DNA of 64,000 nucleotides from Candidatus Heimdallarchaeota archaeon (GTDB taxonomy: Archaea; Asgardarchaeota; Wukongarchaeia; Wukongarchaeales; JBHIFL01), in NCBI GenBank assembly GCA_046761065.1, contig JBHIFL010000012.1, forward strand, positions 1 to 64,000, given 5' to 3'. The notes under the pieces were generated by a model. It was not told the DNA's origin and did not search any database. It saw only the letters and a list, made by a program, of their open reading frames with translations. The position numbers and the translations under genes are program-made. Below, piece by piece: positions 6,485 through 16,639 of the stretch (positions within the stretch are counted from its first letter, which is position 1; the number at the start of each line of letters is the position of its first letter).

Positions 6485-8773
6485 TCATCCTCCTCGTTGT
6501 CTAAAAAACGCTCGGAGCCGCTCATGGGCTCTTTTGGAATAACTGACGGGGAAGGTGTTCACGTCGACGCATCCTTCGCAATATCTCCGACAGGGACAGC
6601 CCCTCACCCGCTCCCGGACCACCGCTAAGATCTCTTCCGCATGGTCAAAAAGCTGCTTGGCACCCCCCATGGGCGCCCCACGATCTAACATCGCCAATTG
6701 CCACCTGTTCCCCTTGCCGCGTAGCAGCTCCACTTCCAGTCCGGACGGATCAAGACCCAACCGGTCTTGCGCCGCCTTCATGACCACCGCTCCCAGATGG
6801 GTGAACTCGTCTCTGCCAAACCACGCTCCCTTGAACCCCATGACAAGTCCTTCCGTCCAATATCGCAAGACGCCCTCCCCTGCCGGGATCCGCTGCTGCA
6901 CCACTACCCGACCACTCCCCAGTTCCCGGATCCGTCGCCAGGTCGGCTGCAAGGTGACCTCGACTTCGCCGAACCACGCGACCACCCGGTCCCCAACCCC
7001 TCGTGCGGTCCCACGCCCTGTCCTTACCTCTCTATCCACATAATTCTCACTGTACCATGCCTTCTCTGCAGGTTCCACTACAATCGTATCCTCTTGAATC
7101 TCTACCACCCGCCAAACCTCCCCTCTTAGGACCAAATAATCGCCTTTCCGCCCCTGCCGAGCCGCTTTCCACATATCGAGGTAACCTATCACCTGATTAG
7201 CCCGCGTGACCACCGCCAGCTCCACTTGAGCCGTACGAAACCGCTGAGCGAAGTACTCAGGGGCACTCCGATCTAGATGGATCTGGAACTGGTGCCGCCT
7301 TTTCCGGACCTTCCCCTCCACCAGCAGCTCCGTCAGAACCTCCTCCACCTTGGCTTCCAGATACTCCGCAGCGGTGTGCGGGAACACCCACCTCAGGTCT
7401 CGCTCGGTGAGCCCGAGGGCTCCACACAACAACAGGGCCATCTTCAAAATCTTCTCGCTGAAAAACTCATACCGAACTGGGTCGGGCTGGAGGGTCCGGA
7501 CCAGGGCTTGTAACTGGCGGGGATTGGCTAGGTAGTAGGTGTCTGGCTGCCGCCGCGGCGCTAAGAACCAGAAGACGTGCCCCTCCCGTTCGGGGTCCCG
7601 CGCCACTCGCATGACCACTTGGTGCACTCCCCGTTTCCCCCCACTTGGATACCCGATGATCACCACCAGATCCAGTTCCCCGAAGTTGACTCCCGCCTCC
7701 ACCGCCCGGGTCACCAACAGCCCCCGCAACTCTCCCCTCCGGAACTGTTTGACCGTTTCCCGGGTCTCCGCCCGTGTCAGCCCGCCATGCACGAGGCCAA
7801 AGTTCCGCCGCGTCAGCTCCTCTACGATCGCCACCCGCTCCAAGAGGAACTTGTTGTCCGCATAGATCACCACACGCGCCGTGGGGTAGATCTCCTCATC
7901 TAAGAGTTTGCGCAGAAACCGGTCAAATGTCGTCACCTCCCCTCCCTCCTTGGCCCTGAGTCCCGTCCCCTGACTGTAGACGAAGACTTGGATCCTTCCA
8001 TGCTTTGCTGGACCAGTAACTACCCGCGCCTCGACCAGTGCTTCCCGCGCGAGTTCCTCCGCGTTGGGGATCGTTGCACTGTTGAACACAAATCGTACCT
8101 CCCGCCCTCGCTCCCGGTTGTACCGCTTGAGGATCCGGTATACCGCCAAGAGATACGCTAGGCTGTATGCTGAGTAGTAGTCGAGCTCATCGCAGATCAC
8201 CATCCATGGCGAGACCATCGCCTCCCCCCAACCCGTCTCGCCTCGTAAAAGCGCCCAAAACAGCGTATCCTTGTACATGTCCACTGTCATGGGGATGATG
8301 TCCACGTTCCCCTTCGCCACCTGCTCCCGCACCCGCCGCCGCTCCTCCCGACTCATGTCACTGGTATACCGTGCTATCCCGATCTGACCCCCTGTCAATT
8401 CGATATTGTGCTCCCGTAATCGTTCCTCTTGATCGAACAACAGCGCATTATTCGGAAATAAGTAGATCACCGGCCGCCGCACCTCCCCCTCCTCCCCTTC
8501 TTCGCCCTGTTTTTGCCTTAGGACTCGTTCAAACGCCAAGAAAACGGTCGCCTCCGTTTTCCCAGCTCCGGTCCCCGCGACATGTAAGATATCATACCGC
8601 TTCACCTTTTCGACAAAGACTGCTTGATTCTCTAGCACCCTCCATCCATATTTCTCCAGAATCTTCGGCCCTAAGTATTGGAGCACTGCTCCCCACGCCA
8701 CCTCAGTCAACTCACCCACTGTTCGCTCATGAACTGCGTACGCCAGGGGCTTATCCAGCACCAGGCCTTTCAC
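6485..8773 (-). CDS. SF2 helicase with C-terminal DUF1998-like Cys4 domain (Hrq1/MrfA/SftH-like)
   Basis: Q motif, AGTGAGKT, DELD, SAT, TRAVEAGVN, degenerate motif VI QVVMRVAR and C-terminal CPCRRYCEGC. The GTG start overlaps the upstream TGA. Confidence 0.85.
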   Translation of the reverse strand: MKGLVLDKPLAYAVHERTVGELTEVAWGAVLQYLGPKILEKYGWRVLENQAVFVEKVKRYDILHVAGTGAGKTEATVFLAFERVLRQKQGEEGEEGEVRRPVIYLFPNNALLFDQEERLREHNIELTGGQIGIARYTSDMSREERRRVREQVAKGNVDIIPMTVDMYKDTLFWALLRGETGWGEAMVSPWMVICDELDYYSAYSLAYLLAVYRILKRYNRERGREVRFVFNSATIPNAEELAREALVEARVVTGPAKHGRIQVFVYSQGTGLRAKEGGEVTTFDRFLRKLLDEEIYPTARVVIYADNKFLLERVAIVEELTRRNFGLVHGGLTRAETRETVKQFRRGELRGLLVTRAVEAGVNFGELDLVVIIGYPSGGKRGVHQVVMRVARDPEREGHVFWFLAPRRQPDTYYLANPRQLQALVRTLQPDPVRYEFFSEKILKMALLLCGALGLTERDLRWVFPHTAAEYLEAKVEEVLTELLVEGKVRKRRHQFQIHLDRSAPEYFAQRFRTAQVELAVVTRANQVIGYLDMWKAARQGRKGDYLVLRGEVWRVVEIQEDTIVVEPAEKAWYSENYVDREVRTGRGTARGVGDRVVAWFGEVEVTLQPTWRRIRELGSGRVVVQQRIPAGEGVLRYWTEGLVMGFKGAWFGRDEFTHLGAVVMKAAQDRLGLDPSGLEVELLRGKGNRWQLAMLDRGAPMGGAKQLFDHAEEILAVVRERVRGCPCRRYCEGCVDVNTFPVSYSKRAHERLRAFFRQRGG

Positions 8774-11700
8774 TTACTCTCCCTCCTCAACATCGCCTCG
8801 ACGCCTCCTAACACACTTCCCAGCTCTCCTACTATCCCTTTCGGCACACCCGCCACCTCCTTCGCATACTCGACTAAGATTCGCCGCATCCGCTCTAAAA
8901 CCCCCGCCGCTTCGTGTGCTGATTCCTTCCTCAGGATTACAAAGGGGCTATACTGGTCCGGCTCCTGCTCCGCCATCGCCTCGATCAGTCCTTTAATGCT
9001 TTGCACGTGAGCCGCCTCCAACTCCCACAAACCCCGTCGCTTCTCCCCTTCCCAGACTACTTCCTGCTTCAAGAGATCCTCCACCAGTTGGTAGAGCTTC
9101 ACACTCCCCTGGGGGGTTGGAGCATACCTCGGGAACCCCCTTGTGGACTGATACCGCTCAAAGTCCTCTGGCAGCAACCACCCATCCAAGAACCCCACAC
9201 AAATCTCCTCCCAGAGGGTCGGCAATAGCGGCTCTCGCAAATCCAACGCCGCCGCCAACTCGGGGCGATCCTTGGGCCGGTGACTGAACAGCTCCACACT
9301 TTTATACCCTATCCCTACCTCTCCCCCATGGGCTCTTACCAGATTGGTCAGGACTTTCCCCGCCCGGTTCAACGCCGCGTCCAACATCGTCTTCGCCCCG
9401 GCCGCTCTTGTTGGGGTGGGGTAGATCCGATCCCCTCTTCGCCCAAACGTCCGCCCGATCCCTCCCACCACGATCCCTGTCCCTGGCCACCGCTCGCTCA
9501 ACGCCTCCCGAATCAGCCGATGCACCCCCTCACTCACCCGCCCCTCTAATGCCATGAACGCTAACCGATCAAACCGTCCCCGCTTGAGAAACCGGAGAAT
9601 TTTCACCACCTGCTCTTCGACTCGTTCGGTACGCTCCGCAGCTCTTCCGATTCGCCCGCATAAGACTGCGGTGGCCAACACCTGGTTAATTATCAGACCC
9701 CAGAAATACTTCCGCCGAAATTCTTCATACCACGGCTTCGCCTTTAACAGAGCTCGCCAAAACCCTACCGACGGCTGCTCATACTTCGGTGGCTTGATGT
9801 CCTTATAGGAATGGGGGATCCCTCGCGCCTCCAGCTCGTTTGCCAGTTCCTTCCTCCCATGCACTGTGACATACACATTCTCTATCTCATACGTAGCCGT
9901 GTGCTTCGGATACTTCACAAACAATTCGTTCCCCTCAATCCAGGCATCACATTCGTACGTAATCAACACAAACTCCCGCCCCGTTGTGGGCCACTCCGGC
10001 AGCTCCGGCTCATAGCCACAGTATATCTTGACCAGCCGCTTGATCTCCTCCTCAAAATCCACTTCCATCCGGGCAGTCCCATCGATCCTCCCCTTGAACT
10101 TCGCCCCGCATTCCTCGCACACCACCACGCGGCCCACCTCCGGTCGTTCTCGGAGTATCCCCTCGCAGACCTCCCGCAGACACCTCCACCCGTGCCTGAT
10201 GCCCTCCTCTCCCACCCACACGGCCTCCTGAAACGCCGTTAATGGAATCGTGGCCGCTTCCACCCGGGGGACGAACCACCCACACGCTTCCCGATTCTTC
10301 ACGTACCTCCCTTGCTCTGCTCGCCTTCTCATGAAGCGGTCCGTCGGGACTGCGCTCGGTCGCTCCTCTGCTATCTTATAAAAGGCTGCACAACCCCAGT
10401 CCTGGGCCGCGTAGAGCCCACACTCCCCACACCGCCTCCCCTCTCCCATTCCCCCTACCAGACACCCCGCCTCCGGCCACCCGCCGGGGTCAATCGCCAG
10501 CCCCAGTAACTCCACTTCCTCAACCTCGAGGACACACCCTTCTTCTCCCTCCAAACGGTAGTTACACCCCATACAACACTCGTCCTGACCCGCTCTCTCC
10601 TGTAACCCCCCGCTCTTCACTCGACACACAATCACCAACAGGGGCGCATATGGCCCGACTCGTACCTTCTGGCAGTGGATGGCCCGCAGCACCAGTAACG
10701 CTCCCCGTGGTAGCTCGCCAAATTGCTTGACCAGCGCTCGCACTCGCTTCGGGACAAAATATTTCATGAGGAGATAATGCACGCTCCGCTCAGGGATCCC
10801 CAGCTCCCTCGCTAAGTCCTGATACCACACCCGCCGCTGCGCTTCGACCTGCCCGGGATTCCCCCTCACGGGCGCGGTAATCCGCTTATTCAACCCTTTG
10901 ATAAGCTTATCCACCGCCTTCTGGAATTGAACCCGCCCAGGCAATAACACACCCCGTCTTTTTGGCGGCTCCGGCTCTTCTATTATCCCTCTTTTTGCTG
11001 ACGCTTCTCTACATGCCCGCGTCCCCTTTTTCGGCCGCCCCACCCCCTCCTTCAACACGGGCTTCCGCCTTGCCTTCTGCCCCGCTCGCACCATTTTGCC
11101 CGGGGACCCCACTTTTTTGGGCCGAACCCTGCCTTTTGCATCCCGCAACCGGGCTCCCGCCGCGCGTCCCCCGCTTCCAACAAACCTTCCCACCAGCTCC
11201 GCACGTTCCTTGTCTGTCAGCCGCTTCCCACCATGCTCTTCAAAGACCTGCAGACACGCTTTGGCGGAACTCGGCATCGCCGCTAACCGAGCCCCAAAGG
11301 GTGAACAGGAGAGCTTCCCCGCTTTATACACGCACCCCGTCTCCTTGGATCGGTACTTCTTTCGTCGAATACATCTCGCATCCCGGAGCTCCCGCAACGC
11401 CGCGTTCGCTCCTTTTACAAAATATTTCCAGGGCTCCGTATAGGGCGCCGCCCTGTACTCCCGGATCAATTCGGTGAGGATGGGATAGTTGCTCTCCACT
11501 TGTTCCTGGAGCTCTCGCTTCGTATTATATACCCGAGCCAGCTGCGGGATCAACTGTAGATAATACCCGGGAAACGTTTCCTTCAATCCACGCCGAAACT
11601 CCTTCTTCGTCCGTGCCCGCCGGTAGAACTCTAAGACATAATCGTGGAGCTCCTCAAAATACCACTTCGTGCATGTCGGCAGCCCTAACGCCCCTTGCTT

Positions 11701-12678
11701 CAACCAGTACTCCTTCTTCCGCCCACAGTTCACCAACAAGACGTGACCTCCTTCCCCCACCTCCTGCGCAATCCGTCCTAGCTCCAACGGGTCCCGAAAG
11801 TCTTTGCAGTCGACCACCACTACTTCTTCAACCTTTCCCACCGCCTCCCCAAACCTCCGCACCCGCCCCGCCTCATCCCTCCGAATCCATTTCGAATACA
11901 CGCAGAATCTCTTGCCCTCTCGCTCCAATCGCCTCCACACCCATGACAGCCTCATATCCATCCGCTTAATAGTTGCCATCCCCGTACCCCGCCGCCCTAC
12001 CATCTTGACCTCAAACCCCCGATCCTCCAACCACCACTGGAATAGTTCCGGATTCCCATGTCGGATCAAACATACCACTCGCGGACACCGCCGCCCAAGC
12101 TTGGCCAGCTCCATGATGCAATTGGCGTATAGCCGCCATTGTTGGCTCATTAGCCCTTCGAGAAACCCCACGAAAATCACCCGCTTCACTCCCAAGCCCC
12201 TTCTTCCTACCTTCACTAACCGGTTGTAAAACGCCTTTGCTCCAAATACTAACAGCTTCGTTCGTTCCTCCCCCTCTTTGTCTTTGTCCCCCGCCAGTTC
12301 TTCCTCCAAGACATCCTTCGGCCCCATCTCCTTAAGCTCAAATTCCGCTGGTTCTAGGTTCAGTTCAAGCACTTCTATAAGCCGCGCCTTGGCGTAGGCC
12401 GAACAGACGATCATATATGCCCTCCTTCTTCGCCGCCGCGTCCTTCCTCCTTCCCCTCGTGTTTTACCCCGCGGTCCCGGCCACCTTGCCCGCGCCCGCG
12501 CTCGTCGCTCCCTTATCTTGTCTTTTTCGGCATACATGGATAGGAGCCCTGTCAACGCCGCGTCTGACCTCTGCTGTTTTGGCGAACAGACCACCAAACA
12601 CCGGTGATCCTCCAACAGCTCCATCCCGAGCTCGTGCAGTTCCTGCCTTCCTAACCGCTCCAAACATTCAAGCAGCAT
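8770..12678 (-). CDS. cas1: giant Cas1 fusion protein: inactivated Ski2-like helicase / winged helix / HTH / Cys clusters / Cas1
   Basis: The C-terminal ~8900-9980 follows the Cas1 pattern: beta domain FVLITYECDAWIEGNELFVK...ARGIP, then MALEG, FGRR, LDAALN, FSH, LDLREP, EDF, YSPF. The N-terminus keeps a Hel308-like layout (GNPELFQWWL, ETF, CSPFG) without Walker motifs. Confidence 0.75.
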   Translation of the reverse strand: MLLECLERLGRQELHELGMELLEDHRCLVVCSPKQQRSDAALTGLLSMYAEKDKIRERRARARARWPGPRGKTRGEGGRTRRRRRRAYMIVCSAYAKARLIEVLELNLEPAEFELKEMGPKDVLEEELAGDKDKEGEERTKLLVFGAKAFYNRLVKVGRRGLGVKRVIFVGFLEGLMSQQWRLYANCIMELAKLGRRCPRVVCLIRHGNPELFQWWLEDRGFEVKMVGRRGTGMATIKRMDMRLSWVWRRLEREGKRFCVYSKWIRRDEAGRVRRFGEAVGKVEEVVVVDCKDFRDPLELGRIAQEVGEGGHVLLVNCGRKKEYWLKQGALGLPTCTKWYFEELHDYVLEFYRRARTKKEFRRGLKETFPGYYLQLIPQLARVYNTKRELQEQVESNYPILTELIREYRAAPYTEPWKYFVKGANAALRELRDARCIRRKKYRSKETGCVYKAGKLSCSPFGARLAAMPSSAKACLQVFEEHGGKRLTDKERAELVGRFVGSGGRAAGARLRDAKGRVRPKKVGSPGKMVRAGQKARRKPVLKEGVGRPKKGTRACREASAKRGIIEEPEPPKRRGVLLPGRVQFQKAVDKLIKGLNKRITAPVRGNPGQVEAQRRVWYQDLARELGIPERSVHYLLMKYFVPKRVRALVKQFGELPRGALLVLRAIHCQKVRVGPYAPLLVIVCRVKSGGLQERAGQDECCMGCNYRLEGEEGCVLEVEEVELLGLAIDPGGWPEAGCLVGGMGEGRRCGECGLYAAQDWGCAAFYKIAEERPSAVPTDRFMRRRAEQGRYVKNREACGWFVPRVEAATIPLTAFQEAVWVGEEGIRHGWRCLREVCEGILRERPEVGRVVVCEECGAKFKGRIDGTARMEVDFEEEIKRLVKIYCGYEPELPEWPTTGREFVLITYECDAWIEGNELFVKYPKHTATYEIENVYVTVHGRKELANELEARGIPHSYKDIKPPKYEQPSVGFWRALLKAKPWYEEFRRKYFWGLIINQVLATAVLCGRIGRAAERTERVEEQVVKILRFLKRGRFDRLAFMALEGRVSEGVHRLIREALSERWPGTGIVVGGIGRTFGRRGDRIYPTPTRAAGAKTMLDAALNRAGKVLTNLVRAHGGEVGIGYKSVELFSHRPKDRPELAAALDLREPLLPTLWEEICVGFLDGWLLPEDFERYQSTRGFPRYAPTPQGSVKLYQLVEDLLKQEVVWEGEKRRGLWELEAAHVQSIKGLIEAMAEQEPDQYSPFVILRKESAHEAAGVLERMRRILVEYAKEVAGVPKGIVGELGSVLGGVEAMLRRESK

Positions 12679-13003
12679 GTGATTACCTAATATATTTGGG
12701 AAATCGCTTTTTAAGGTTCAACAGTGTTTTAGAAAATCTTACCATATGTTTTTCACTGTAGAAATATTCCTTGTTAGTCTTTGAAAATACAAAATCCCCC
12801 ATGAGTATCCTCCTTCCATGGAAAAAAGTAAATTGTTGCTATCTACATTTGATATGGCCTGTATTATTCTGGCAATTCTCCAGACACCTACCCTGATTTG
12901 GTTCAATGGGGTTACAGAGTCAATGTTAACACTTTCACCCAGAATGGATCTCTTTTTACTCACCCTTGGGTGGTTTTTATATTACCAAGCCTACAACCCT
13001 CTG

Positions 13004-13444
13004 ATGACTCCCTCCTATCAAACTCCTCAAGAGGCCGCAGTTGCCCGACTCTTGGATTCTTTACCCCTCCGCTACCGCTACCGATGGGTTCTCCGTAATA
13101 GGCCGTACGCAAATTACGTGTTCGATTTCTTTATTCAGGGCGGCCTCATCCTCGAGTGCAGCGCCACTAAAAATGCCTCCTCAAAGGCAGTTAATTGGCT
13201 CTATCAGAAAGCCGGTCTTGTTAATCGCCGCTTCTGGGTGGTGAAACGCCGCTTTAACCCCCCTCCCATTACTGTTTTCCTTTTTGAAGCGCCCCGCGCC
13301 CACCCAAACCGTATTCACAACGCCATCCAAACCATGACCAATTTCGGCGAGCTGGCGTCAACAGACCGAATCTTTGTCCACTTCTCTGAATTAGAGACTT
13401 TCCTTACAAAATGGAGCTCACGGGAAGATATCAACCCCATTTGA
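13004..13444 (+). CDS. PD-(D/E)xK / DUF559-like nuclease, paralog 1
   Basis: TPQE...YVFDFFIQGGLILEC. ATG 13004 lies ~25 nt after a TTTTTATAT TATA-like box, so it is preferred over the ORF-track start at 12818. Confidence 0.6.
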   Translation: MTPSYQTPQEAAVARLLDSLPLRYRYRWVLRNRPYANYVFDFFIQGGLILECSATKNASSKAVNWLYQKAGLVNRRFWVVKRRFNPPPITVFLFEAPRAHPNRIHNAIQTMTNFGELASTDRIFVHFSELETFLTKWSSREDINPI

Positions 13445-13731
13445 AACTGTAGCATGAGATAAAGCTCGCTTGTAATCGCATCATCGTGTTTATCCCAAAT
13501 TTCTTCTCCTTTCTTCTTTTTTCCTTCAAATATACTTGATCCCTTCTCTTGTAGCTTTGTTGGCGTTTCCTTCTTCTAGTCCTTCACTTGGATAATAAGC
13601 CCAAAATGCCCTTCTAGATCAAAATAGAACTTGCTAGAAGGCTTCAAAGACTTATATATATCTATGGAACTAGTATGATGTGATACCATAGGAATCCATT
13701 GGAATCCTCCTTGAAAACAAAGGTGTGGTGC

Positions 13732-14376
13732 ATGCAAACTAAGAAATTATCCAATGACGACTCGGTAAAAGCGGAAAAGGGGATCTTACGTCACACAATT
13801 CTACACCAACCCTCCACCGCTCAAGAATGGACGATTGTCCAACTCTTGCAGGAGCTAGACCTGAAATTCATGCATCCTTGGTTTGTTTATATCCAAAATC
13901 GCCGCTATCTCTTCGATTTTCTCATCGTGCCAGATGTGGCTGATTTCTCGTCCACTGACATCACGGTGCGAGTCCGTGAATCTGACTTGGAAACGACCGG
14001 GCCTGGATGTGATCAGAAGCGGTTGACAAGATTCCGGGATGACCTCCACTCAGATACTACACCTTATAAGGTGGAAAATGCTTATGTTATCGAGTGCGGC
14101 GTTTCGCAAAGTTGTCCCTCCAAGGCACGGGCCTGGCTCCGTTCTAAGGCTGCCCTCATTGACCTACGATTTCGCGCTCTCAAACTCTTCTTTCACTCAT
14201 CTCCTTTCACCTTGATGCTGCTCGAAGGCCCATATTTCTCTCAAAACGACTTTAATTCGAACCTAGAACCTCTATACTTTACTGATAAGCTGGTAACTTC
14301 CATAGATCAGCTGCAAGATTTCCTAAGAGGATTGAAGGCACGGTTGAGAGGATCTTCTCAGACGGGAGGTGTCTGA
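13732..14376 (+). CDS. PD-(D/E)xK / DUF559-like nuclease, paralog 2, with ~49-aa in-frame insertion
   Basis: TAQE...YLFDFLI...YVIEC...SKARAWLRSKA aligns with paralog 1 (SKAVNWLYQKA). ATG 13732 follows AGGTG. Confidence 0.6.
   Translation: MQTKKLSNDDSVKAEKGILRHTILHQPSTAQEWTIVQLLQELDLKFMHPWFVYIQNRRYLFDFLIVPDVADFSSTDITVRVRESDLETTGPGCDQKRLTRFRDDLHSDTTPYKVENAYVIECGVSQSCPSKARAWLRSKAALIDLRFRALKLFFHSSPFTLMLLEGPYFSQNDFNSNLEPLYFTDKLVTSIDQLQDFLRGLKARLRGSSQTGGV
13941..14084 (+). repeat. structured ~140-nt repeat, copy A (inside nuclease gene)
   Basis: Core 13990-14028 matches 16147-16185 at 37/39 positions; the flanking hairpins are conserved in position. Confidence 0.85.
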
Positions 14377-14378
14377 AT

Positions 14379-15227
14379 TTGGGGAAGGAAGATGTTCAAT
14401 GCATAAAAAAAATAAAAAAAGTAGTTTCCGTGGTTGCTTGGACACCCATTGCTAAGCCTTTGAACGGAACGCTCCCACGCTCGAAGAACTCCACAATGCT
14501 ACGACTGGCTCCAGTGGAGTACACCTACAAGCATGGAAAAGAAGTCAAGTCCGGTCGGGTGGAGACCTATCTTATCAAAGGGCTGCGCGGCGCTCTGCGG
14601 CACTCAGCTATGAGCCTCTTACGGGAGGCTGGCCTGGAAGTATGCCATTCTAGTGATAAAGAGGCAACCCAAGAAGGTAAAGCCCTGATCCCCGAGGGGT
14701 TTCACCCATTGGGTGCATGCGAGAAGGACCCCTGCATCCTGAATCGTATTTTTGGATGGATGCGCCATCAATCCCGGATTGCTGTGTATGCTGATCCCAT
14801 CGGGTGTCCGAAACACAAGACCTTTGCTGCAGATGTCCCCCTCCAACCCGTCCAAATCGCCACCGAGAACCGGGTCGCTCTGACCTTTGACCACGAAGCA
14901 ATTCAGGATTTTGGTGAACGTTATTTCTCCGGAGAATTCCGGTTTCACATCGATGTCTCCGCTTTGGAGCCGGAGGAACTTGGGCTAGTCATTCAATCTG
15001 CTATGACCCTCCACCGCCTTGGTCGGGGCTTTAATGCTGGCTATGGCCATATTAAGATCCAACAACTTACCCTTGAACAAGTGACAACTGAGCGCCGACT
15101 CCAGTGGGATGGAAATGGAAGCTTTCGTGTCGAAGAAACGGAAAGTCGTGAACCACTCCACCAAGAAGTCTTAGACGCGTTGCAAGCTTTTCAACTGTAC
15201 CTTAACGCACAAACTGGGGAGTCTTAA
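14379..15227 (+). CDS. cas7: Cas7-family RAMP (Csm3/Csf2-like)
   Basis: KGLRGALRH, Cys-rich C...CEKDPCILNRIFG, thumb TENRVAL, ELGLVI and G-rich loop LGRGFNAGYGHIKI. TTG start after GGAGGTG. Confidence 0.85.
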   Translation: MGKEDVQCIKKIKKVVSVVAWTPIAKPLNGTLPRSKNSTMLRLAPVEYTYKHGKEVKSGRVETYLIKGLRGALRHSAMSLLREAGLEVCHSSDKEATQEGKALIPEGFHPLGACEKDPCILNRIFGWMRHQSRIAVYADPIGCPKHKTFAADVPLQPVQIATENRVALTFDHEAIQDFGERYFSGEFRFHIDVSALEPEELGLVIQSAMTLHRLGRGFNAGYGHIKIQQLTLEQVTTERRLQWDGNGSFRVEETESREPLHQEVLDALQAFQLYLNAQTGES

Positions 15228-16136
15228 ATGTATTGTGTGTTAATTGGACATACATCAACTCCTATTGTCAAACCCAAGGCGGAATTTTGTTGGAAGGGGA
15301 CCCTTGTCCGAATTAGTCACACCCTCATCTCCACCCCTGACCATCTCTCCACCATTTACACTCGACCTCCCTTGCGCCGCTATTATGGGAAACTCACCGT
15401 GGGGAAACCTTCCTTCCTGTACGTCTATAGGTGTTACTATGGATATGTCTACGTGATCTTTCCTGTCCGAACACCAAGAGCAGGCGCTCGGAAACTGAAA
15501 TACCTCCTCCAGCATGATCAAATGGGGCGTTTTGCTCAGGAAGGCATGGGCCGCGTCCGATGGCTCGGCGGCTTCTTTACTGCTACACTCCCCCCCAAAC
15601 CACCTCGACCCCCCAAACTTCGAATCAGAAAAGGCATGCCCCCAGATCTGCCTGAGTCCATCAAAAAACTCCTCACACTCGCGATTCTCCATGATCTCGT
15701 TCATTGTAACCGGCACCAAAGCAAACTGATGTCTGAAGTCCAGATCCAAGATGAAGAGCTCCGTCGGCTTGCCAAATCTCATCACGCCCTCACAATGAAT
15801 CCACTTTTACTTACCTTGCAAAAATATGATCGAATAGCGGCTAGAATTACCCGTAAGCATTGGTCTCCCATTAAAACCCGTTACTCGTGGCGGGCGAATA
15901 AAAAAGTCGATGTTCAGCATTTAGTACGACAAATTGAGGCGCATCAAGACAATATCTTAACTCTGTATAAAATCATAAAGGCTTCCAAGGAGTTGGATCT
16001 GCTGAATGAGAGTTTAGAGTATGGCCACAGTTCCCTCCGCCAACATCTTCTCATTATCGCTAATTTAATCGTGACAGATTGGTTGAAGGAGCGTTTAACT
16101 CTTTCATCAGCTGGAATTACGGTTGAAACGCCGTGA
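15228..16136 (+). CDS. Cas5-like RAMP fused to circularly permuted HD nuclease
   Basis: G-rich loop MGRFAQEGMGRVRW, a Pro-rich linker, then LHD...HH...YD and a C-terminal SLRQHLL. ATG directly follows the cas7 stop. Confidence 0.7.
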   Translation: MYCVLIGHTSTPIVKPKAEFCWKGTLVRISHTLISTPDHLSTIYTRPPLRRYYGKLTVGKPSFLYVYRCYYGYVYVIFPVRTPRAGARKLKYLLQHDQMGRFAQEGMGRVRWLGGFFTATLPPKPPRPPKLRIRKGMPPDLPESIKKLLTLAILHDLVHCNRHQSKLMSEVQIQDEELRRLAKSHHALTMNPLLLTLQKYDRIAARITRKHWSPIKTRYSWRANKKVDVQHLVRQIEAHQDNILTLYKIIKASKELDLLNESLEYGHSSLRQHLLIIANLIVTDWLKERLTLSSAGITVETP

Positions 16137-16240
16137 ATTCGACGGAGAAACGACCGGCCCTGGATGTGATCAGAAGTGGTTGACAGGGTTTCAGGAAGGA
16201 CATCCCCGCGAATACAGCCGTGTAAGCGGTTGAAAACTTA
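16098..16240 (+). repeat. structured ~140-nt repeat, copy B (3' end of cas5-HD and intergenic)
   Basis: Direct repeat of 13941-14084 at an offset of 2157 bp; three hairpins, two with GNRA-like loop sequences. Confidence 0.85.
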
Positions 16241-16639
16241 TTAAGAGTAATATAGGTCATGCATTCCCGAAACATGGCCAAACCATGTCTTTTTTTCCAG
16301 TTCTTCAGCGAGGACTGTCTCCCATCGGTCTTTATAGGTGTGTTTTAAGTGCGCAAGCCGCGAAATCTCATCGAGGATGATTTCGAGGAGGTTGGGCAGT
16401 AACATGTACTCCTCTTCGTCTAGCTCCTCACTCTTGAGGAACTCATCGATGGCGAGCCCAACGAGCACCTGCGGGTCGGAGTAGTCGGTCTGGCGAAGGA
16501 TTTCGTAGCTATAGAAGGCGATTTGGGACATGAGATGCCCATAAGGGTATAACTCTTCAAAAAACCCGACATAATTCCCAATAAGGTCTTCAATCCATTT
16601 ATTGCGGGGGTATCCCTTCGGAGGCATTTTGTCTTTCAA
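16241..16639 (-). CDS. acidic helical hypothetical protein
   Basis: 132-aa ORF with protein-like composition, convergent with cas5-HD; no motif recognised. Confidence 0.6.
   Translation of the reverse strand: MKDKMPPKGYPRNKWIEDLIGNYVGFFEELYPYGHLMSQIAFYSYEILRQTDYSDPQVLVGLAIDEFLKSEELDEEEYMLLPNLLEIILDEISRLAHLKHTYKDRWETVLAEELEKKTWFGHVSGMHDLYYS

Follow-up and report, generated by a model that had tools for sequence, protein, structure and literature searches.

Organization of the cas7/cas5-HD locus

We analyzed positions 1 to 64,000 of contig JBHIFL010000012.1 (hereafter, the window), forward strand, from the assembly GCA_046761065.1 of Candidatus Heimdallarchaeota archaeon, an Asgard archaeon, with attention to a folded element of ~160 nt that occurs twice around a pair of cas genes. 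Copy A (13926-14085, + strand) lies within a small conserved gene (13732-14376, +; 214 aa from the ATG at 13732), which is followed by a cas7-like RAMP gene (14379-15227, +) and by cas5-HD (15228-16136, +). Copy B (16070-16245, +) starts in the last codons of cas5-HD (NLIVTD), so that the stop codon of this gene (16134-16136) falls inside the element. Both copies have the same sense as cas7 and cas5-HD.

An earlier note on this DNA, made from the sequence alone, had named the flanked genes as those of a Cas7 and a Cas5 RAMP protein, and this assignment is supported, the first being Csm3-like and the second a Cas5-like RAMP fused to an HD domain. The Cas7 protein matches Pfam RAMPs (23.1 bits, cut-off 22.1), PADLOC Csm3 (1.6e-7) and TIGR03986 (E 2e-7, yet 30.8 bits against a curated cut-off of 161). 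Cas5-HD combines the RAMP part (residues 1-123), which includes the G-rich loop GMGRVRW, with a Cas10/Csm1-type HD domain (residues 141-302). In its AlphaFold2 model (predicted local distance difference test score, pLDDT, 93), residues 141-302 match the fold of the Csm1/Cas10 HD domain with Z up to 10.4 (VIA-align), while residues 1-123 give Z values of 7-8.4 against Csf, Csm4, type VII Cas5 and Cmr3 chains, a range that a common fold could also produce. The HD likeness covers residues 1-237 of Csm1; no Cas10 Palm/cyclase domain was identified, the 1302-aa neighbor described below having been judged by family match alone. In known complexes, Csm4, Cmr3 and Csf3 hold the 5' handle of the CRISPR RNA (crRNA). 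The cas5-HD family is rare: a search of 1.84 billion representatives yielded 105 clusters, of which many are C-terminal fragments, and 38 of the 400 Asgard genomes searched contain it.

The locus had also been described as lacking an array, and we reached the same result for the assembly in full, which has 234 contigs, totals 4.4 Mb and is 91% complete. A k-mer scan revealed no CRISPR array in this genome, although arrays can be missed in metagenome-assembled genomes (MAGs), and neither Cas1 (PF01867) nor Cas6 (PF01881) had a match in it, with control genomes positive. A Cas1-mobilized element, one of the options raised earlier, is therefore unsupported, since Cas1 was not found.

Extent and distribution of the repeated element

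A repeat search of the window aligned 13974-14039 with 16131-16196 (66 nt, 83% identity, 2157 nt apart), and a 30-nt core with one S position occurred exactly twice in the 64 kb, with no occurrence expected from 100 shuffles. The two-copy repeat claimed earlier is thus real, but the extents given for it began ~15 nt too late, the true starts being 13926 and 16070, and the location of copy A within an open reading frame had been missed. In the assembly as a whole, we found four copies rather than many dispersed ones, the two additional copies being C15:11063-11189 (C15c) and C30:22757-22860. The C30 copy is decayed, C15c was also called decayed in the hairpin comparison, and each is preceded by a remnant of a cas5-HD gene 3' end. 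A nucleotide search with copy B in 60 relatives and an exact-core scan of metagenome contigs gave no match; seven bacterial matches from a loose-core scan of genome contigs were taken as chance. The locus is present as DNA in the Logan runs SRR29324585/87 and SRR34261176/77. Positions 13900-16300 contained no tandem repeat, and the window as a whole no tandem array.

Compensatory changes maintain the fold of a structured RNA

For the comparative analysis, we aligned seven copies (alignment A10): winA and winB (copies A and B), together with C15c, L122A, L110B, L125_1 and L125_2, the five added copies coming from the same genome and from two related Heimdall-type assemblies. RNAalifold on MAFFT alignments gave a fold only in parts, so we placed the helices manually before counting the pairs. 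Across six helices with 28 pairs, 93.3% of the cells are paired, compared with 25-52% when the partners are slid, and 16 cells carry double compensatory changes, compared with 0-5. None of 500 shuffles matched the observed paired share, the number of double-change cells or the covariation score. G-U pairs make up 28 of the 193 cells, so that pairing falls to 79% on the opposite strand and the fold favors the + strand. Selection acts on the element as a structured RNA of the sense strand; both the selection on structure and the strand preference had been proposed in the earlier note.

The fold comprises a 5' domain, a central domain and a 3' hairpin. In the 5' domain, two nested helices close a variable hairpin; in copy A these are CGTG 13926-29/CACG 13962-65 and CAG 13931-33/CTG 13955-57, and in copy B CGTG 16070-73/TACG 16118-21 and CAG 16075-77/CTG 16111-13, together with TTGG 16079-82/TCAG 16107-10. 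In the central domain, the closing helix is a long-range one not recognized earlier (ATCTG 13980-84/CAGAT 14051-55 in copy A, ATTCG 16137-41/CGAAT 16209-13 in copy B), whose variants ATTCG/CGAAT, ACCCG/CGGGT and ATCTG/CAGAT enclose the invariant core, GATGTGA-stem-AGAAG loop-stem-TTGAC. Within this domain, copy A has TGG 13988-90/CCA 14046-48, and both copies have a helix flanking the core (CCTG 14002-05/CAAG 14027-30 and CCTG 16159-62/CAGG 16184-87) and a stem around the AGAAG loop (TGATC 14010-14/GGTTG 14021-25 and TGATC 16167-71/GGTTG 16178-82), the latter varying as TGATC/GGTTG, TGGTT/AGCTA, TGGCT/GGCTA and TGGCT/AGCCG. The 3' hairpin (CACCT 14060-64/AGGTG 14069-73 in copy A, 16215-21/16226-32 in copy B) is of free sequence and differs in almost every copy, as in CAGCCGT/GCGGTTG, CTCTGT/ACAGAG, CACCT/AGGTG and TATCATCT/AGATGATA.

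Of three helices proposed before, the hairpin at the 3' end is fully confirmed: each of the six intact copies has one in this position, of unrelated sequence, and the hairpin of the decayed C15c is atypical. TCACGG/CCGTGA pairs in 90.5% of the cells over the seven copies, but it hardly varies and competes with CGTG/CACG. The remaining helix pairs in 79-88% of cells depending on register, but CCTG/CAGG, directly flanking the core, fits better. A P5-like pairing of copy B, TGAAAC/GTTTCA, is not kept in the other copies and was discarded. We also observed a conserved GATGACCTCC at 14040-14049 of copy A, present in the same columns of L110B, L125_2 and C15c, which pairs in the fold with an internal GG(A/G)G stretch; we take it to resemble an anti-Shine-Dalgarno sequence, i.e., the 3' end of 16S rRNA.

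The earlier note did not recognize the RNA as a known family, and Rfam 15, with its ribozymes, riboswitches and omega RNAs, gave no match in the window at the gathering score, nor any match at E<=1 in the loci with copy B, C15c and ten copies of a 180-nt element described below. A ribozyme, one of the options raised earlier, thus had no Rfam match.

Arrangement and types of the copies in related genomes

Copy A forms a 49-codon in-frame insertion between FDFLIV and YVIEC of the small gene. The paralog just upstream (12818-13444, +; 208 aa), which has no insertion, reads FDFFI-QGG-LILEC, and the orthologs P0112-P0115, also without it, read FDFLI.GNLVLEC; by sequence comparison, copy A is a lineage-specific in-frame insertion. 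The nearest relative is represented by contigs L122 and L110, which overlap by 30 identical bases and hence form one locus. Its order is small gene, element, 25 nt, the ribosome-binding site and TTG of cas7, cas5-HD and element, placing the upstream copy ~25 nt before cas7. In L125, a Heimdallarchaeota MAG whose cas5-HD is 80% identical to that of the window, two tandem units follow cas5-HD (8186-8336 and 8383-8532) as a two-unit mini-array, each starting at ATCGTGACAGA and ending near GCTTAT, and the cas5-HD open reading frame runs into the first unit for 21 codons more than its counterpart in the window. Each locus therefore has two copies, in three arrangements: in the small gene and downstream (window), before cas7 and downstream (L122/L110), or in tandem downstream (L125).

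An identity matrix groups the copies into types that persist across species. Type alpha unites copy B with L125_1 (77% identity) and type beta L110B with L125_2 (91%); the looser type gamma unites copy A with L122A (67%), which share the ATCTG helix arm also present in C15c.

These comparisons bear on the notion that the repeat is simply duplicated protein-coding sequence with a shared peptide (ETTGPGCDQK.LT.F.), which we regard as very improbable. Copies A and B do translate alike in one frame, open in copy A, L122A and the first L125 copy, into which cas5-HD reads to reach 323 aa; however, the ortholog of copy B on L110, a Logan contig with a cas5-HD 79% identical, has an in-frame TAG. Of ~12 nucleotide differences between copy A and L122A, one is synonymous, with no third-position bias, and the cas5-HD tails entering the element vary in both length and sequence (302, 312 and 323 aa). 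Elements of a sister family, described in the next section, sit after stop codons in any frame, and coding does not explain the compensatory base changes. On these five grounds, we rejected the peptide. A bulge-helix-bulge (BHB) intron to explain the 1-nt frame difference in copy B was rejected as well, since that sequence also occurs in copy A, where it is in frame, and is read through in L125.

Related RNAs follow cas5-HD in other Asgard genera

We took the sequence downstream of 69 cas5-HD genes or gene fragments from other Asgard genera, of which 64 fall into three families of mutually similar sequence. In the sister family, closest to the window type, 19 sequences support five helices, including a pseudoknot candidate, with 82.7% of cells paired (38-50% with slid partners) and 76 double-change cells (20-37). 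A covariance model of this family, R1, was built from sequences downstream of cas5-HD in another Asgard genus, with no window sequence in training. Searched against the window together with L003 and L012 (70 kb), it produced only two matches, 16159-16187 and 14004-14028, which lie inside copies B and A and align the invariant core; it gave no full-length match to window-type copies, and L110 was unmatched at E<=1. The E-values are weak, but the coincidence of place is not. Sister-family copies beside broken cas5-HD fragments score 57-98 bits, overlapping the 61-99 bits of those beside intact genes. The cas7/cas5-HD pair and the RNA are the only part common to all loci checked, and the RNA sequence families follow the cas5-HD clades. 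The RNA is physically coupled to the cas7/cas5-HD module.

Two further families lie downstream of cas5-HD in other Asgard genera (L050-L096, cluster 3; L043-L091, cluster 1), and cluster 1 has a GAGAAGGCTCGGA-like core in common with the sister family.

A second element of ~180 nt has 48 copies in the genome of the window (nhmmer), none of them in the window itself, for example L013:65-263 (C36:23372-23550), L014 (C36:20663-20840), C25:26083 and C4:21036(-). Its copies lie behind cas5-HD paralogs or 3' fragments of these, and the module of C36 has it on both sides. Many copies end in AAGGAG, 6-8 nt and the start codon of diverse housekeeping genes (GMP synthase-like, GTPase and others, as judged by N-terminal sequence). 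Compensatory changes are visible, and Rfam gave no match. Homology with copies A and B was considered and discarded, as nhmmer with all filters off gave no match and the likeness is only positional. The 180-nt element also occurs in another organism (L123:8400-8590), and one small contig holds six full or partial copies within 8 kb (C115:1654-9037).

An alternative reading of copies A and B is a structured element of selfish or mobile nature, moving by way of DNA or RNA, which is lodged at cas5-HD 3' ends and spreads to new sites, with a fold that serves mobility and not the RAMP complex. It would accommodate an upstream copy inside the small gene in the window and after it in L122, a copy A whose boundaries are those of the folded unit, the tandem duplication in L125, the solo copies with cas5-HD 3' remnants in many genomes and the 48 copies of the second family. 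We nevertheless consider it unlikely. No inverted repeat pairs the two ends of copy A or of copy B, and neither terminal inverted repeats nor clear target duplications were seen, the short ATCG(T/A)G repeat at both sides of copy A being too short to judge as one. We saw no transposase, Cas1 or reverse transcriptase next to the element. Moreover, only four copies of the window type were found in its genome, and a genome has 1-5 copies of the sister family, most of which lie at a cas5-HD gene or fragment. Alpha, beta and gamma have each stayed conserved between species instead of being homogenized.

A candidate RNA partner of Cas7 and Cas5-HD

To our knowledge, all characterized RAMP proteins work on an RNA. 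We propose, with a probability of roughly 0.55, that the ~160-nt RNA is the RNA subunit of array-less, type III-derived Cas7 and Cas5-HD modules of Heimdall/Hod-type Asgard archaea, and that copies A and B are two old paralogous copies of one structured RNA gene. The RNA would be read in the sense of the cas genes, starting inside the last cas5-HD codons, and the Cas5-like domain and Cas7 would bind it through the invariant core. It would replace crRNA as a built-in subunit that provides a scaffold or specificity or regulates the HD nuclease. Solo copies that remain next to decayed 3' ends of cas5-HD may work in trans. Each locus keeps two copies, although their positions change.

An RNA partner of the array-less complex had been suggested in the earlier note, and the fold and the coupling make it the best reading, although several observations weigh on the other side. 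A guide-like hypervariable single strand was not found in the copies, whose variable parts are stems and hairpin loops. Copy positions shift between close relatives and solo copies stand directly upstream of unrelated genes, both of which fit a mobile or cis-acting element too. The single-sequence folding energy is ordinary (z = -0.16 and -0.99), and support therefore rests on comparison, not thermodynamics. The seven window-type copies come from three related organisms, so that covariation counts are not independent events, and R1 matched copies A and B only locally and with weak E-values (0.46 and 2).

The same RNA could instead be a cis-acting mRNA element, a leader or 3' untranslated region (UTR), that governs processing, stability or translation of cas7/cas5-HD and the downstream gene, possibly by helix switching. 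Three mutually exclusive helices (CGTG/CACG, CACGG/CCGTG and CCGT/ACGG) share CACGG and CCGT, and the conserved GATGACCTCC resembles an anti-Shine-Dalgarno sequence. L122A ends 25 nt before the cas7 ribosome-binding site, C15c ends ~30 nt before an ATG, and the 180-nt family ends in AAGGAG and the ATG of diverse genes. However, copy B faces a convergent gene, so there is nothing downstream to regulate, copy A lies within a coding region 290 nt from cas7, and elements persist by dead cas5-HD fragments. Regulation of unrelated downstream genes also leaves unexplained why RNA families track cas5-HD clades. We judge a cis-acting role unlikely.

Comparison with known RNA-guided systems

The proposed RNA subunit of Cas7 and Cas5-HD resembles type III crRNA in its putative partners, a Cas7 of the Csm3 kind and a Cas5-like domain that recalls Csm4/Cmr3 and is fused to an HD domain of Cas10 type. 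It is also a same-sense RNA adjoining the cas genes. The ATGTGA motif of the core, which in the sister family reads ATGAAAG, resembles the archaeal 8-nt 5' tag AUUGAAAG, a likeness that we treat as a lead only. In contrast to type III systems, there is here no repeat-spacer array, Cas6, Cas1, Cas2, Cas10 Palm or Cas11, and the element is ~160 nt long, highly folded and without an evident spacer. A CRISPR array has at least three direct repeats of 24-48 nt with unique spacers of similar length between them; the two copies do not make one.

VIPR is a RAMP system without a CRISPR array, mostly viral and with a minimal single RAMP, in which ~100-nt non-CRISPR RNAs lie up- and downstream of the genes; these vrRNAs consist of 9-16 YNNGG tandem repeats and a tail, with a structured conserved part (bioRxiv preprint 10.64898/2026.04.26.720920). 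The array-less RAMP, the non-CRISPR RNAs on both sides and the structured conserved part recur in our locus, which differs in its Cas7 and Cas5-HD pair, its chromosomal location and its occurrence in Asgard archaea. The vrRNA repeat code was not found, as 13900-16300 holds no tandem repeat and reading the sequence revealed no 5-nt GGY periodicity. VIPR is a precedent for RAMP proteins that use a non-CRISPR RNA. The omega/reRNAs of TnpB and IscB (IS200/IS605) provide another parallel, in that the effector reading frame ends within the RNA gene, RNA and protein clades co-vary, and many degraded copies keep the 3' end of the reading frame and the RNA. The effector here is a RAMP/HD protein instead of a RuvC nuclease, we saw neither transposon ends nor TnpA, and no scaffold-adjoining guide was identified.

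A broader proposal, which we offer tentatively and hold to be doubtful, is that in Asgard archaea without CRISPR arrays the type III-derived pair of Cas7 and Cas5-HD acts as a RAMP effector, programmed or controlled by dedicated, individually encoded structured RNAs with several conserved types per locus and dozens of solo genes across the genome. Such a RAMP system would depend on RNA but not on CRISPR, and would follow neither the crRNA nor the VIPR logic. Elements in front of housekeeping genes might be cis tags letting the complex control host mRNAs. We found no description of the module in Asgard defence surveys or the 2025 CRISPR classification, which is not proof that none exists, and the probable RNA partner is of a kind that we did not find described.

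The Asgard archaea are the archaeal lineage closest to eukaryotes, and in them a type III-like Cas7/Cas5-HD pair recurs that lacks a CRISPR array but is accompanied by a folded RNA of its own that co-evolves with it. Should this RNA be the partner of the two proteins, it would represent a second route, besides VIPR, by which RAMP proteins use non-CRISPR RNA, and would bear on how CRISPR effectors arose or decayed. The module is a compact candidate ribonucleoprotein with a predicted HD nuclease, and it could account for a group of conserved Asgard RNAs that lack annotation. Its proteins, the boundaries of the RNA and the invariant core have been delimited well enough to allow co-expression and pull-down experiments.

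Neighboring genes and a possible internal promoter

On the opposite strand upstream of the small paralogs lie a DEAH/Cas3-like helicase with a MrfA Zn-binding domain (6485-8773, -) and a 1302-aa protein without a family match (8770-12678, -), the helicase being conserved in the same loci as the 1302-aa protein. The latter also adjoins the module in the paralogous C36 and the orthologous L123, and is fragmented in L125. The gene set at 6485-16136 of the window consists of the helicase and the ~1300-aa protein, one or two small paralogs, cas7 and cas5-HD. The same set recurs in C36:15889-23330 (where the helicase was not looked for), in L123 and, with the large gene fragmented, partly in L125.

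Within the cas5-HD coding sequence, TATAAAA occurs at 15966-15972 (codons LYKII), 27 nt upstream of 15993, the position from which the solo copy C15c starts to resemble the window. This string may be an internal promoter for the RNA. AT-rich, TATATA-like strings are present at the same cas5-HD codons in the sister family.

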